A stretch of DNA of 64,000 nucleotides from Candidatus Borrarchaeum weybense (GCA_019057385.1 JAHQJS010000004.1:448001-512000), one strand, 5' to 3'; counted from the first letter of the stretch, positions 39,310-44,250 are shown. Notes: generated by a model not told the origin, from the letters alone. Numbers and translations are program-made.

Positions 39310-40083
39310 TTGGAGGTATCTATTATAAATACTGCGACTGGTTACACAGATGTACAACGCAGGATGTTGATATTGTTATTAGAGAACCATGCACTATTTC
39401 TCGACGTTGAATTCCATTTAATGATCCCTGAGAATGCAAAAGGCCAGTTACACTATTTTTACATGCATAAATTACATGTGGGAACAAGAAGCCTTCAAAA
39501 AATTCTCCGTACTCTGCAAAAAAAAGGATTAGTGGAACGTAAAGATAAAAAAAGAGGACGATCTTTCGCAATGAGATATCTACTTACCTCTCACGGCAGA
39601 TTAGTAGGAAATAAATTGCTCAAGGAAGAGAAGGACCCTCCTAAAGTTCTTGCAGAGAGACATATGCGGGTTTTAATAAAATCAGAGGAGGGGTCTGTTA
39701 AAGAAGAACCACTTTTCGCGATCTCCCCAAGAGGTGCAATTATCTCGATAAATGATGTAACCATTAAAAAAGAAACTCGGACAGTCCTAGTCAGAAAAGA
39801 ATACATCCTAGTAAGAAATGATATTGTGATAGTAACAAAACGAGTAAGTGGGGATAGTTGTAAAATTATAATTAAAGGATTGAAAGGGCAAATTGCTCAA
39901 GAGATATATGAAAAGGTAAAACGAGTCTGCTTGCTGACTGAGGTTTGTGACGATTTCGAATGCTCTATTCAAACACCACTTTCGGAGGAGTGCTTTTCGT
40001 CTATAGCTGGATTAACGCAAGGAGACCGTGCAAGAAAACTATTGGATGAGTGGAAAACTACTATTAAAGGAGTGGAATGCTAG
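39310..40083 (+). CDS. wHTH + unknown C-terminal domain, paralog 1
   Basis: 'LHVGTRSLQKILRTLQKKGLVER....YLLTSHG'. Confidence 0.65.
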   Translation: MEVSIINTATGYTDVQRRMLILLLENHALFLDVEFHLMIPENAKGQLHYFYMHKLHVGTRSLQKILRTLQKKGLVERKDKKRGRSFAMRYLLTSHGRLVGNKLLKEEKDPPKVLAERHMRVLIKSEEGSVKEEPLFAISPRGAIISINDVTIKKETRTVLVRKEYILVRNDIVIVTKRVSGDSCKIIIKGLKGQIAQEIYEKVKRVCLLTEVCDDFECSIQTPLSEECFSSIAGLTQGDRARKLLDEWKTTIKGVEC

Positions 40084-40110: not shown

Positions 40111-40887
40111 ATGCGGGACAAAGATCTGAAGCTGTTGGAGGACGACTTGTTAGTCCTATGTTTAGATAATTGCAGTATATATCTGTTTTCGGATGATCGT
40201 CACTATACTGATAGTTGCAGATCAAACTTAATAGCCATAGATTCACCAGGAAAGACATCCACTTGGTACGCATGTCGATTAAAAGTGGGATCACGAACTT
40301 TTATGCGAATAACAAAACAAGCATGCGCCAAAAAACTATTAGAAGAGCGGCGTGTTATGCGACATCATTCGTTCGTAAGACTTCTAGAACTCACCCCCTT
40401 AGGAGAAAAGACTGCAAAACGCTTGAAAGCTGAAAGAAATGATGAATTTCCTGAACCCGAAGAAGATCCCCTCATAAAAGTTCGAGTACGATCGCACAGT
40501 CCTCACGCTCAAGAAGAGCCAATACTTGTTATGAAAGAAAAGTGCCTATCCTCATTAATAGCTGTAACCATATTACGAGAAAAAACTGATAACGAAGAAT
40601 ACATAATCACAAAAAGCGATACAATTGTTGTCACAATAAGAGATGCAGAACTTCCCGAAGGAAAGGATCGAAAAGTCTTAGTGAAGGGTATTGAACTAAA
40701 ACCTTCGCTTTATGAGCGGATCAAAAGATTGGTTCTGATAACGTTAAACGATGAAGACCTTCAATTTAGTTTTGTACCACATACACCGCTTCCTTATGAA
40801 TTCTCTAACGTAAAAAAGTTAAGAACAAATCTGGCGCAAAAAATGCTCAAACAGTGGAATTGTTTCAAAAAAACGTCTTGTTCGTAA
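40111..40887 (+). CDS. wHTH + unknown C-terminal domain, paralog 2
   Basis: Shares LDN, LKVGSR, LTPLG, EEP, EYII, VKG and PL motifs with paralog 1. Confidence 0.65.
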   Translation: MRDKDLKLLEDDLLVLCLDNCSIYLFSDDRHYTDSCRSNLIAIDSPGKTSTWYACRLKVGSRTFMRITKQACAKKLLEERRVMRHHSFVRLLELTPLGEKTAKRLKAERNDEFPEPEEDPLIKVRVRSHSPHAQEEPILVMKEKCLSSLIAVTILREKTDNEEYIITKSDTIVVTIRDAELPEGKDRKVLVKGIELKPSLYERIKRLVLITLNDEDLQFSFVPHTPLPYEFSNVKKLRTNLAQKMLKQWNCFKKTSCS

Positions 40888-40974
40888 TCTGTCAGCATAA
40901 TCATGTCATAAAAGAATATTTTAAGTATGCTACTACCCATAATCTGTTCATAGAGACACATATAGGCGGATTTT

Positions 40975-41904
40975 ATGACTGATTCCTCAAGTGTTCCTTC
41001 AAGGAAGGGGGGTGCCGTGGATCACCCCGAATTGTCGATGATCGGGTGCCTGTGTTCCCGCGTCGGGCTAACTCAACCATCCGTGAGGACAGAAGCTCCG
41101 TCCGTAAGGGGGGAGTAGTTCACGACTGATCATTTATCACCATTAGAAGATCAATTTCTTGTTCTTTTACTAGATAATGCAAGCATTTTTCCGCAATTTG
41201 ACCGCTGGGATATCATTAGCTCAGAACTCCCACGAGGAAAACTAATTTTCTGGTATGCTGGAAAACTTCACATAGGAACAAAAACACTTCTAAAAACAAT
41301 GCGACGTCTTAACAAAAAAGAGTTAATTAAAAGGCAGGATTGTGTAAGAAGAAGTGCTTCAGTAATGCGATATATACTAACAAAGAAAGGAAAAGAAGTT
41401 GCAACTCAAATTAAGACAAGATGCAACGAAGATAGCTGTGTGAAGCCTCCTAAGGATTGCTTCATCAAGGTATTAACAACGATGTACGGATGCGAGGGTA
41501 TAGAACAGCCACTTTTCTCAATAAAGCAGAAGCAGATAACACCGATTAAAGATGTTACAATGAAAAAAGAATTCACAGAGAGTGCAGAGTTCGTTATTAC
41601 GCGTGGAGATACTCTTATTGTAACAATAAGAAAGAAACACAAAAAAAGCGACGAGCATGAAATACTCATAAAAGGTCTTGCTTGTGACTTTGAGTTATTT
41701 GAGAAGGCAAAACGTTATGCACTTGTTTTTTTGCAGCAGAGAGGTGAATACAATGAAAATCACTTGTCTTATAAATTTGTCTCTCTAATACCTCTCCCGG
41801 AGTCATATCTTTCACATAAAAATTCCTTTCAGAAGAAAACTAAGAACATGCTCAAAGAATGGAGAGACCATACCTTAAGTCACCTACAGAAAAAAACGGA
41901 CTGA
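40975..41904 (+). pseudogene. wHTH paralog 3, interrupted after codon 3 by a 147-nt omegaRNA-like insertion carrying a TAG
   Basis: Removing 40977-41123 restores MTDHLSPLEDQFLVLLLDN...LHIGTK, in frame with the 41299 ORF. Confidence 0.75.
40984..41123 (+). mobile_element. Non-autonomous IS605/TnpB right-end (omegaRNA scaffold) element
   Basis: GC-rich island ending GAAGCTCCGTCCGTAAGGGGGGAGTAGTTCAC; flanked by a GACTGAT direct repeat. Confidence 0.75.
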
Positions 41905-41920: not shown

Positions 41921-43816
41921 TTAGAAAGCTGCTGCCAACATCTCGTTGATGTGTGTCACTATATCTTTCCAATTTTGTACCTCTAACACCCTTCCGTTTT
42001 TAGCAAGTTGTTTGGCAAACCAAGGTCTGCCCTGCGGGATATAGAACACATTAACTTGATCAAAGAAATTCACAACATCCCTAGGATCTTCCCCATGCGT
42101 CCAGACACAATCTGAAATCAAAAACACAATTTTTTTTGGCGCATTTGTGCGTGTAAACTCATCTAAGGAAACTTCTAAAGCCCCTCTGATGTCTGTCAAC
42201 ATTGTGTGGCGAAGTGAGACGATATTAGTAACAACTCTATCAATTTGTCTTTCCTGATTTAATCCTTTTAACAGATACTGATCTGTATTATAAGCAATTA
42301 CACCAAAGTTGTCATGTTTGCGATTCATTGCATATGAAAGAATAGATGCGATAAGGATAGCTATCTCGATTTTCTCGCCTCTCATCGATTCAGAACAATC
42401 AACAAGGAGCATAGCCCCTCTACTAGTTGTTTCTCGTGATCTGACAATAAAATCTTCTTCTTTGGGATATACCTCTTGTACTAGATTTTCAATTGTACGC
42501 TCAATATCGAGATCGTCATCTCCATTAAACTTGTGAGGTCGTAAACGTCCTTCACGTCTTCCAAAAGGAGTAGCTCTAAGTGCACGCTTTAGAGCAACTT
42601 GCAATGATAATACTCTTGCCAATTGTTTCATATATTCCCTTGGTTGTCGTTTATGATATTCTATCCCGTCTGATGCGCTGTGAGTCGGGTGTGAATCGAA
42701 TGTCACAAGATTTTTTGCGTTCAATCCTGCAGGATGAGCCTCTCCAGAGACATTTTCAGAGGTCTTTTCAAGAGGAATTGGATATGCTGTACCTTCTATT
42801 TCTTCTGGAATTGCAACATTGATTTCTTCCATATCATCTTCTTCATCTTCGGGTGCTTGACTTTTTTTTTCAGGAAATAATTCTTTTTCTAATTCATCTT
42901 CTTCGCGATGTTCTTCTTTTTTTTCATCTCCTTCTCCTGGTCCTTCTGTGTCAATTTCACTTTGAAGTTCCTCAAAAATTGAGGAGATTATCTCGTAAAT
43001 TATTTCCTCTTCTGATTTGTTCGATGTAGGGGCTGGCCAAATTTTTAAGCGTAAGGAAACGATAGCAGCGTCGAGTAAATCTTCAAAGGTGTAGTTATCT
43101 TTTGCCCCATTCATTATCAACTGAATAAAATCGATTGCACCTCTTATACTTGCACCTGCTTTTAGATCTGGATGTTTTCTACTTCTTTGTATGATTTCAA
43201 CTGCTAGATCAATTAGCCATTCATCTTTGCATTGCGTGTTAACTTTAACTATTTGTATTTCTTCTTCTTTGGACTGATATAACATTTTTAGACTTACGAA
43301 CCGATCTAAAACCCCTCGGCTAATGCGCGAGACTCCAATATCGTCCAAGGGGTTTTGAGTCGCCACCACCGAGAAATTTGCATTAGCATTTACGTTTCCA
43401 TAACGCGGAATATCCATTGTCTTTTCACTAAGTGAAACAAGTAACACATTAAGTGTTTCAGGCGGTGCTCTATTGATTTCCTCTATGTAAAGTATACCTC
43501 CCTCTTCCATGGCTTTAGCCAATGGACCTTTTCGAAAATTCTCTTTTTTATAACCTGTCTGCAATACTGCTGAGGGATCAAAATGTCCGATCAACTTGGG
43601 TACGGTCAAATCTTCATTGCCTTCTACGAAATAAAATGGGACATCTAAAATTTCGCTAAAATTCCTAAGTATGGTTGTTTTTGAAGTTCCTGGTGCCCCC
43701 TCAAGAAGAACTGCCTTATCGGCAGCTAATGCACTTAATATAAGGCGAATTTCTTTTCGTCTTCCTACGATTTGTGCACAAACTCTACCGAATACGTCAT
43801 TTACGTCAATGTCCAT
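41921..43816 (-). CDS. MoxR AAA+ ATPase fused to a vWA domain
   Basis: GAPGTSKT, YIEEINR, ATQNP, LDRF, ASIRG; acidic linker; MIDAS DCSES. Confidence 0.85.
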   Translation of the reverse strand: MDIDVNDVFGRVCAQIVGRRKEIRLILSALAADKAVLLEGAPGTSKTTILRNFSEILDVPFYFVEGNEDLTVPKLIGHFDPSAVLQTGYKKENFRKGPLAKAMEEGGILYIEEINRAPPETLNVLLVSLSEKTMDIPRYGNVNANANFSVVATQNPLDDIGVSRISRGVLDRFVSLKMLYQSKEEEIQIVKVNTQCKDEWLIDLAVEIIQRSRKHPDLKAGASIRGAIDFIQLIMNGAKDNYTFEDLLDAAIVSLRLKIWPAPTSNKSEEEIIYEIISSIFEELQSEIDTEGPGEGDEKKEEHREEDELEKELFPEKKSQAPEDEEDDMEEINVAIPEEIEGTAYPIPLEKTSENVSGEAHPAGLNAKNLVTFDSHPTHSASDGIEYHKRQPREYMKQLARVLSLQVALKRALRATPFGRREGRLRPHKFNGDDDLDIERTIENLVQEVYPKEEDFIVRSRETTSRGAMLLVDCSESMRGEKIEIAILIASILSYAMNRKHDNFGVIAYNTDQYLLKGLNQERQIDRVVTNIVSLRHTMLTDIRGALEVSLDEFTRTNAPKKIVFLISDCVWTHGEDPRDVVNFFDQVNVFYIPQGRPWFAKQLAKNGRVLEVQNWKDIVTHINEMLAAAF

Positions 43817-44250
43817 AAGCGCAACACCAACTGCTGTAATTTTGTTTAGATGCCACAAAGCGCTACTATATAATAATCTCTAAAAGGTAACGACTTCTAA
43901 ATTTTCTTTTAAGTGAATTGATTAATCATGCTATCTGAGGAAATATTCACTTTAAAATTGTTTGCTTTCGTGTATGAACTAAAATGATACTACACATATG
44001 ACTTCCTCTTTTTGAAACTTCCTTTGGTCGCTAATCACTCATTCACCCGTTGTTCTCCAGTTGTATCTTTTTTGAAATCTCTATACTACTCACAGATAAC
44101 TTTTTACCTGCTGCGGGTTCTGAGACTGCTTGTAAGCATATAAAACTGTAAAAAACAGTATATTTAAAAACTGCGGGGAATGTTGCATAGTATATATAAG
44201 CCAATCATTATGTCATATTGCTTCTAAAAATAAAACACGAGGTAATAGAA

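Follow-up and report, generated by a model that had tools for sequence, protein, structure and literature searches.

Introduction

In IS200/IS605 TnpB elements of the ISDra2 type, the scaffold of the guide RNA (reRNA or omegaRNA) shares sequence with both the 3′ end of tnpB and the right end, the guide consists of the ~16 nt flanking the right end, and the TAM lies 5′ of the left end (Karvelis 2021, PMC8612924). ISDra2 TnpB cuts 15-21 bp from the TAM and uses a guide of ~16 nt (PMC8612924). In the homing model, the guide matches the element-free site, TnpB-omegaRNA cuts this element-free donor joint, and recombination with the element-bearing sister copy is proposed to restore the element (Meers et al., bioRxiv 10.1101/2023.03.14.532601). 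Homing by TnpB has been shown in engineered bacteria and is described as scarless; a 2026 review and the primary papers likewise describe excision and reinsertion of IS200/IS605 elements as scarless, with no target duplications.

Here we analyse a TnpB-element remnant in a 64,000-nucleotide stretch of Candidatus Borrarchaeum weybense DNA (GCA_019057385.1 JAHQJS010000004.1:448001-512000), referred to as the window. The remnant belongs to the known IS200/IS605 TnpB-omegaRNA world and its protein-free derivatives, and shares with them the scaffold, the right end, the flanking guide and the TAM. Unlike IS200/IS605 elements, however, it lacks the left end, tnpB and tnpA and bears a 7-nt copy of its target beside the TAM. 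PATEs and stand-alone omegaRNA cassettes are similar to it in being protein-free, in keeping the omegaRNA and in needing TnpB in trans, but a PATE keeps both ends and is mobilised by TnpA, whereas the window copy consists of a right end only plus a partial target duplication. As in canonical insertions, the right flank starts directly after TTTAT in the empty site; complete elements and PATEs leave the target unduplicated, whereas 7 nt of it are doubled here. Because the left end is absent and the target duplication is present, the window copy is neither a complete element nor a PATE.

Internally deleted DNA transposons, such as those of the P elements and the Ds derivatives of Ac, arise by interrupted gap repair: the break at the empty donor site is repaired from the element-bearing sister, and an early stop followed by end joining yields truncated, non-autonomous copies. 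Unlike in these systems, the break at the window locus would be directed by RNA and lie away from the insertion point, so that one end would carry the TAM plus part of the target and a one-sided target duplication would result. Insertions of LINE-type retrotransposons have a constant 3′ end, variable 5′ truncation and short target-site duplications. The scars described below resemble 5′-truncated LINE insertions in all three respects, but no reverse transcriptase was found, and some scars hold a left-end hairpin, a TAM and upstream flank. TldR proteins, nuclease-dead TnpB-like repressors with host-directed guides (PMC10705468), likewise combine a TnpB-type scaffold with a guide in the 5′ end of a host gene. 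Unlike TldR loci, the window stub has no adjacent dead TnpB, is not conserved, interrupts the gene, and has a guide matching its own empty allele only. In the literature consulted, whose coverage was incomplete, we found no description of truncated or scarred TnpB homing products or of IS605 target duplications, and novelty is thus unproven.

Results

Anatomy of the insertion

The insertion interrupts the third of three tandem winged-helix paralogues at its start codon. The features of the locus, all on the + strand, are listed here with the evidence for each.

39310-40083, 40111-40887 and 40975-41904, +: the three tandem winged-helix paralogues of the host, ~257 aa (ORFs in the window)
40972-40976, +: TTTAT, the TAM, sharing bases with the host ATG at 40975-40977
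40975-41118, +: chimeric ORF of 47 aa, host M-T-D followed by the frame of the ancestral TnpB C-terminal tail (ORF listing)
40977-40983, +: GACTGAT, left copy, corresponding to target nucleotides 1-7 and adjoining the TAM (sequence, paralogue C4:692672, metagenome joint)
40984, +: T, junction base (linker length and register)
40985-41123, +: omegaRNA scaffold and TnpB-element right end, a remnant with the right end only (nhmmer, common 3′ boundary)
41116-41118, +: TAG, the ancestral tnpB stop inside the G-TAG-TTCAC terminus (frame of G001:C23)
41124-41130, +: GACTGAT, right copy, the first 7 nt of the guide (sequence)
41124-41139, +: predicted 16-nt guide GACTGATCATTTATCA, directly 3′ of the right end (length after the ISDra2 guide, PMC8612924)
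41125-41904, +: remainder of the interrupted host gene, HxlR-like winged-helix (PF01638, E = 2.5e-4)

The 139-nt block 40985-41123 ends in the terminus GGGGAGTAGTTCAC, followed by GACTGAT and then by CATTTATCA. Its GC content is ~60% (peak 0.61), against ~0.37 in the surroundings and the genome. The net insertion amounts to 147 nt (49 codons), keeps the frame of the ATG and contains one stop, the TAG. The sequence agrees with an earlier note on this DNA, which gave the same layout, in-frame insertion and single stop. That note also saw no left end or tnpB, and this holds: neither a left-end hairpin nor tnpB was found upstream of the scaffold, and no tnpB lies within 2.5 kb of it. Between TTTAT and the scaffold are 8 nt without the hairpin TTCGCAAGAAGACCCC...ATTGCG that is found in the other nine copies of the family. 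The resulting arrangement, TTTAT + 8 nt + CCTCAAG, has the same register as canonical left ends, which open with TTTAT + 8-nt linker + CGCAAG, and a left-end variant starting with CCTCAAG is present at C2:133.

An exact 7-mer at a fixed junction has a chance probability of ~6e-5 per offset, and the GACTGAT repeat is not due to chance. The possibility, raised in the earlier note, that GACTGAT is simply part of the tnpB 3′ sequence fails, the full-length copies having GTCGGA, GCGAAA or CACTTA before the scaffold. The insertion is not an assembly artefact, because contigs of two other, independent metagenome studies carry it as well.

Downstream of the paralogues, on the opposite strand, lies a 645-aa ORF (41921-43858), a putative fusion of a MoxR-type AAA ATPase with a vWA domain.

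The scaffold family and its TnpBs

Searching the 4.18-Mb assembly with a profile made from the genome's own copies returned exactly ten full-length scaffold matches, the window copy included (nhmmer E = 5.5e-33, model positions 1-142). All ten share the terminus ...GTAGTTCAC, and the flanks beyond it are unrelated. In three copies, tnpB lies immediately upstream of the scaffold (C8:31570, C5:437787 and C7:837547, with an in-frame stop in the tnpB of the last), and six are protein-free elements composed of a left-end hairpin and the same right end. The window copy is the sole one with neither tnpB nor left end. The homology of the scaffold and the 3′ boundary common to nine other copies support the earlier identification of the insert as an omegaRNA-only, right-end piece of a TnpB element, and the divergence of the flanks immediately after the common terminus agrees with the sequence that follows being the would-be guide.

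The window scaffold is most closely related, at 85% identity, to the right end belonging to a full-length tnpB element from another genome of the same genus, G001:C23. Its tnpB frame of 497 codons traverses the scaffold and stops at a TAG 5 nt before the right end, and the tail of the 47-aa ORF in the window matches the C-terminus of this TnpB. Because the scaffold doubles as the C-terminal coding region of tnpB, the open frame and single TAG of the window copy are the inherited TnpB tail and stop, so that these properties lose the special meaning formerly attached to them. Fusion to the host ATG in frame is a one-in-three coincidence.

The consensus fold of 16 copies (RNAalifold) comprises 37 pairs, 17 of them with compensatory changes; the window copy keeps 34 of the 37 and breaks three. 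Searched against Rfam at gathering thresholds, the whole window matched no family. Words sampled from the locus were next to absent from two RNA runs. The genome contains 41 TnpB zinc-ribbon matches and one Y1 tnpA, and its TnpBs retain the acidic RuvC triad D/E/D. No cognate TnpB is evident in the genome, because the nearest scaffolds are 74-76% identical to the window copy and have a different terminal hairpin.

In TnpB P0001 (L002:1497-2945, - strand) and in G000:C5:437984, the RuvC-II acid lies in an unusual G-x-P-(D/E)-K motif, the usual motif being hydrophobic-E-x-L; within the P0001 family, the motif reads PD in C8 and C7 and PE in C5. At G000:C8:156362-156900 (- strand), a truncated right end from a different TnpB family, with the terminus ...GAGGTAGCTCAC, is nested within the left-end hairpin of a protein-free copy and splits it.

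TAM and left ends

In all eight aligned family copies that bear a left end, TTTAT is followed by 5-8 nt and then by the hairpin TTCGCAAGAAGACCCC...ATTGCG. The same TTTAT-linker-hairpin arrangement is found in 45 elements with paired left and right ends, where the linker is ~8 nt long and lineage-specific. Since every left-end-bearing copy has TTTAT before the linker and hairpin, TTTAT is the TAM of the family, as the earlier note had implied. The TTTAT of the window locus occupies exactly the position needed for canonical insertion.

In metagenome run X7, on the contig with the empty allele, a second TnpB right end (...GTAGTTCAC) abuts G40925. This base directly follows TTTAA (40920-40925, TTTAA|G) in a TATA-like box ~50 nt upstream of the host ATG. 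Both TAMs, TTTAT and TTTAA, resemble the core of the archaeal TATA box, and promoters may be preferred landing sites for elements that use them.

Empty site and natural variation

The host-gene paralogue at C4:692672 begins with ATGAATGATCATTTATCA, and further homologues begin with M-(T/N/D)-D-x-L-S. The pre-insertion sequence thus was TTTT-ATG-ACT-GAT-CAT, with a single GACTGAT. The paralogue and a contig from a 2015 metagenome that skips the 147 nt both give the empty site TTTAT|GACTGATCATTT, which establishes the 7-nt duplication as real; its recurrence elsewhere, described below, points the same way and upholds the earlier note on this count.

Contigs from four independent metagenomes were aligned to the locus. 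The insertion allele occurs in two metagenome studies, on contigs of 4-7 kb. The 2015 marine-sediment run contains both alleles, the insertion allele at depth 10 and the empty-allele contig at depth 4.5, and the insertion is polymorphic in nature. The empty allele, which the earlier note had asked for, is represented by a single short contig of 93 nt, which joins 40976 to 41124 and skips exactly 147 nt, with 7 ambiguous bases. Its right side is an exact match over 30 nt, three of which are different in the paralogue; the left side comprises 27 nt with 3 mismatches, and such joints can stem from other organisms. Because of this short, mismatched left side, the evidence for the empty allele TTTAT|GACTGATCATTTATCA is suggestive, not conclusive. 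Exact-match scans of metagenome contigs with a 30-mer and a 20-mer of the right flank gave no further alleles. No full-length element was found at the window locus, and one metagenome run showed no loose contig end there. The insert is absent from the syntenic gene of G004 and from other homologues; the former was rejected as a source of the exact empty site, which is not derivable from it (~69% identity, different N-terminus).

Between strains, five changes fall in the 139-nt insert against four in ~835 nt of flank. Two of the five lie at positions without variation among the 16 family members, and one disrupts a C-G pair that is otherwise invariant, which argues for relaxed constraint on the stub. 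The next in-frame start of the host gene is ATG 41299, the use of which would remove much of the winged-helix domain. No TAM-adjacent target of the window guide with up to 3 mismatches was found in the genome, and an exact match to TTTAT plus guide is present in the empty allele. Judged by these sequences, the empty allele in natural populations appears to be the sole perfect target of the stub guide.

Another paralogue of the host gene, at G000:C7:76934-77600 (- strand), has a ~42-nt fragment beginning GTCAATCACC at its 5′ end. It replaces the usual start region, and a TTG within it could serve as a new start codon.

TAM-proximal target duplications recur

Every right-end-like terminus was examined for the same signature, namely a TAM, the first k nt of the right flank, the element and the same k nt again. 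Around 14 further TnpB elements of this genome and its relatives show it with k = 6-11, where ~0.3-2.6 are expected by chance; the flanking duplications that the earlier note proposed to look for in other copies are thus found. With TTTAT as the only TAM, chosen beforehand, this genome gives five clean cases of k >= 6 (k = 7 at the window locus, 9, 9, 9 and 6), and flank permutation predicts ~0.3 TTTAT-anchored matches of >= 6 nt per 99 exact ends and ~0.9 per 314 loose ends. Among 80 ends from relatives, TTTAT gives k = 6 and k = 11, against ~0.08 expected. Six T-rich TAMs, a set that is partly post hoc because it was picked after sight of the matches, give 19 cases against 2.6 expected and, for k >= 8, 11 against 0.35.

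Across the signature loci, inspection finds the right junction constant and the left breakpoints variable. The retained parts range from stubs of 38, 41, 78, 139 and 159 nt through whole MITEs to whole tnpB or tnpA+tnpB elements. In an IS605-type family of seven copies with the TAM TTTAA, four retain the 10-nt linker CTTAWKCGGC; in the remaining three, the start of the copy's own right flank takes the place of linker bases in register, over the first 10, 9 or 7 positions. Such in-register replacement of the linker is also seen at C4:892922 (left end at C4:893166) and in G002:C229. The scars at C4:1217832 and G004:C44 each contain, in slightly diverged form, a repeat of their own upstream flank together with the TAM, so the template for copying was the scarred locus itself. 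Nowhere else in the genome does the 62-nt extra segment of the C4:1217832 scar occur; it was read instead as a diverged duplicate of the flank upstream of that scar. Every observed k is at most 11, and in every case the duplication has guide position 1 as its first base, next to the TAM.

The scars affect ~10% of the ends in the source genome and a few percent in relatives; the ends sampled come from one genus and a few relatives, and genomes so related do not count as independent. Among a further 30 right ends (GGGGTAGTTCAC) taken from five relatives, there was no scar beyond the known G004:C44, so that scars are infrequent outside the source genome. When genome contigs were scanned for a 14-mer from the right-end terminus, most matches were random; ~14 genuine ends came from Firmicutes and other archaea, and none of this small sample had a scar.

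Several matches were left out of the scar count: C4:631035 (k = 7), with a low-complexity flank; window ~59910/60704 (k = 7 after CTTAC), where no left end follows; C5:24292, where the 11-nt match is the left-end start itself and no TAM precedes it; C4:1214190, where TTCAC may be a degenerate right end and not a TAM; and the k = 6 matches at C5:267881 and C6:125775.

The genome's only tnpA (Y1) + tnpB element (G000:C7:~194100-195885) has a 10-nt target-derived linker, ATAGACTTGG, which alters the sequence immediately 5′ of its left-end hairpin. Bases at this position assist cleavage-site recognition by TnpA in IS608-type elements, and the change could impair excision of the tnpA+tnpB element.

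A probable homing-repair origin of the scars

The scars probably result from the repair of TnpB-triggered breaks, that is from homing that retained the TAM and part of the target. From the observed anatomy, its recurrence and statistics, the empty-site sequence and the polymorphism, we infer cleavage by TnpB, the route of repair and the succession of events as follows. An ancestral element would have been seated canonically at TTTAT|GACTGATCATTT, splitting the start codon of the winged-helix regulator gene, and its own TnpB-omegaRNA would have cut an element-free copy of the site at the TAM-distal end of the target. Excision creating such empty sites may be rare, because the genome holds a single Y1 tnpA. 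The right side of the break would have full homology to the right end plus flank of the template, allowing copying leftwards through the right end. The left side, consisting of the TAM and part of the target, would be non-homologous to the linker and left end of the template. Extension of the untrimmed left 3′ tail in register would overwrite the linker with target bases, while right-side synthesis that halts early or overshoots, followed by end joining, would give truncated or over-extended copies.

At the window locus, the end carrying TTTAT and GACTGAT may have been joined to an incompletely copied element. Alternatively, an in-register linker swap may have been followed by a later deletion between similar C(G/CT)CAAG motifs at the left-end start and the scaffold start; this two-step origin is equally possible, because TTTAT + 8 nt + CCTCAAG is in the canonical left-end register. 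By either path the product would take the form of the TAM, k nt of target, the element (5′-truncated in the window copy) and the full target. With a guide match of 7 nt, the window product should escape re-cutting, judging from the ~16-nt guide of ISDra2. Similarly, k <= 11 would fit products that match too little of such a guide to be cut again, and all observed values lie below the 15-21 bp cut distance of ISDra2 TnpB.

If the duplications are imprecise homing products, they constitute natural evidence, drawn from sequence only, of this pathway at work in Asgard archaea. This origin would also explain the orphan omegaRNA stubs and the copy-to-copy differences in the bases between the TAM and the left-end hairpin. 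Moreover, it would provide a simple signature from which homing events, TAMs and the length of target surviving on the TAM side can be read in any genome, and would caution annotators against taking a short direct repeat around an IS200/IS605 fragment as the mark of a DDE-type transposon.

Repair without TnpB would lead to final structures that look alike. In this account, TnpA inserts the element canonically at TTTAT|G and excises it from one strand, loop/heteroduplex or replication-fork repair leaves a patch of target behind, and an unrelated microhomology deletion removes the left end and tnpB. TnpA excision is indeed strand-specific, and the left-end start (CGCAAG/CCTCAAG) and the scaffold start (CCTCAAG) share CAAG in the right register. 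However, TnpA chemistry places no nick or break 6-11 nt past the TAM, published accounts have IS200/IS605 elements transposing without a scar or a duplicated target, and the start of the duplicated bases at guide position 1, by the TAM, is the place of TnpB target recognition; we consider this account unlikely. Somewhat less probable still is that the 147-nt unit of 8-nt linker and scaffold is a TnpA-mobilisable mini-transposon, whose 5′ hairpin acts as the left end and which inserted canonically after TTTAT before a homing scar rewrote the first 7 linker bases. The canonical left-end register, the existence of left-end variants starting with CCTCAAG and the resemblance of the 5′ part of the scaffold to left-end sequence (GGGGGG...GAATTG) agree with such a unit. 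Yet it would be the only one among the ten scaffold copies in the genome, the same sequence being internal in all others, downstream of tnpB or of a true left end. In addition, the TTGAGG partner of the left-end outer stem is absent, and the guide-position-1 start of the duplicated bases beside the TAM would be left unexplained.

Among the atypical modes of spread suggested in the earlier note, the repair-mediated one fits best, while the RNA-templated one, in which a target-paired omegaRNA is reverse-transcribed from the cut target strand in a LINE-like manner, is very improbable. The fixed 3′ end, the variable 5′ truncation and the 6-11-nt duplications do resemble target-primed reverse transcription, and the 5′ limit of the window copy is close to that of the conserved scaffold. 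However, RVT_1 (PF00078) has no match in this genome, which is estimated to be 100% complete, and positive controls matched; sister scars contain parts known as DNA only (left-end hairpin, TAM, duplicated upstream flank), which are not expected from a processed omegaRNA; and full-length elements show in-register linker replacement. There is equally little to recommend the note's other proposal, a domesticated cassette whose scaffold, kept by the host, lets a trans TnpB or TldR-like protein bind its own start codon and regulate the gene. In its favour, the host promoter would drive transcription of the scaffold, TTTAT with a 7-nt seed match does stand at the ATG, and most of the fold (34 of 37 pairs) is preserved. 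Against this, the ORF is interrupted, with much of the winged-helix domain lost on a start at 41299, the insertion is polymorphic in nature, and the syntenic and homologous genes of relatives lack the insert. Strain variants strike two positions invariant in 16 members and break an invariant C-G pair, so constraint is relaxed. The nearest scaffolds (74-76% identical, with a different terminal hairpin) leave no close cognate TnpB, the TnpBs keep their catalytic acids, the 7-nt match falls far short of a ~16-nt guide, and the genome itself offers no TAM-adjacent guide target. The window stub today is an orphan, slowly decaying omegaRNA relic that interrupts a gene, not a domesticated regulator.

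A further step beyond homing repair as the origin of the scars would be that the stub with its right end only still works as a selfish unit, a minimal gene drive without transposase or left end, which we regard as doubtful. Its transcript from the host promoter, together with a trans TnpB, would cut the empty allele TTTAT|GACTGATCATTTATCA, which would then acquire the 147 nt during repair templated by the stub-bearing allele. If so, TAM-proximal duplications would form a readable genomic log of RNA-guided homing in Asgard archaea.

A widely shared scaffold terminus

A terminal omegaRNA module, GAAGCC-hairpin-GGTGGTAGTTCAC, is nearly identical between Firmicutes and several archaeal groups. It occurs at loci L118, L121, L123, L128, L131, L139, L156, L161, L166 and L169; the Firmicutes hosts are Kandleria, Sharpea and Peptostreptococcus, and the archaeal hosts are Hadarchaeota, Pacearchaeota, Nitrosopumilaceae and Thermoplasmata. 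This distribution points to a scaffold terminus that appears to be very widely shared.
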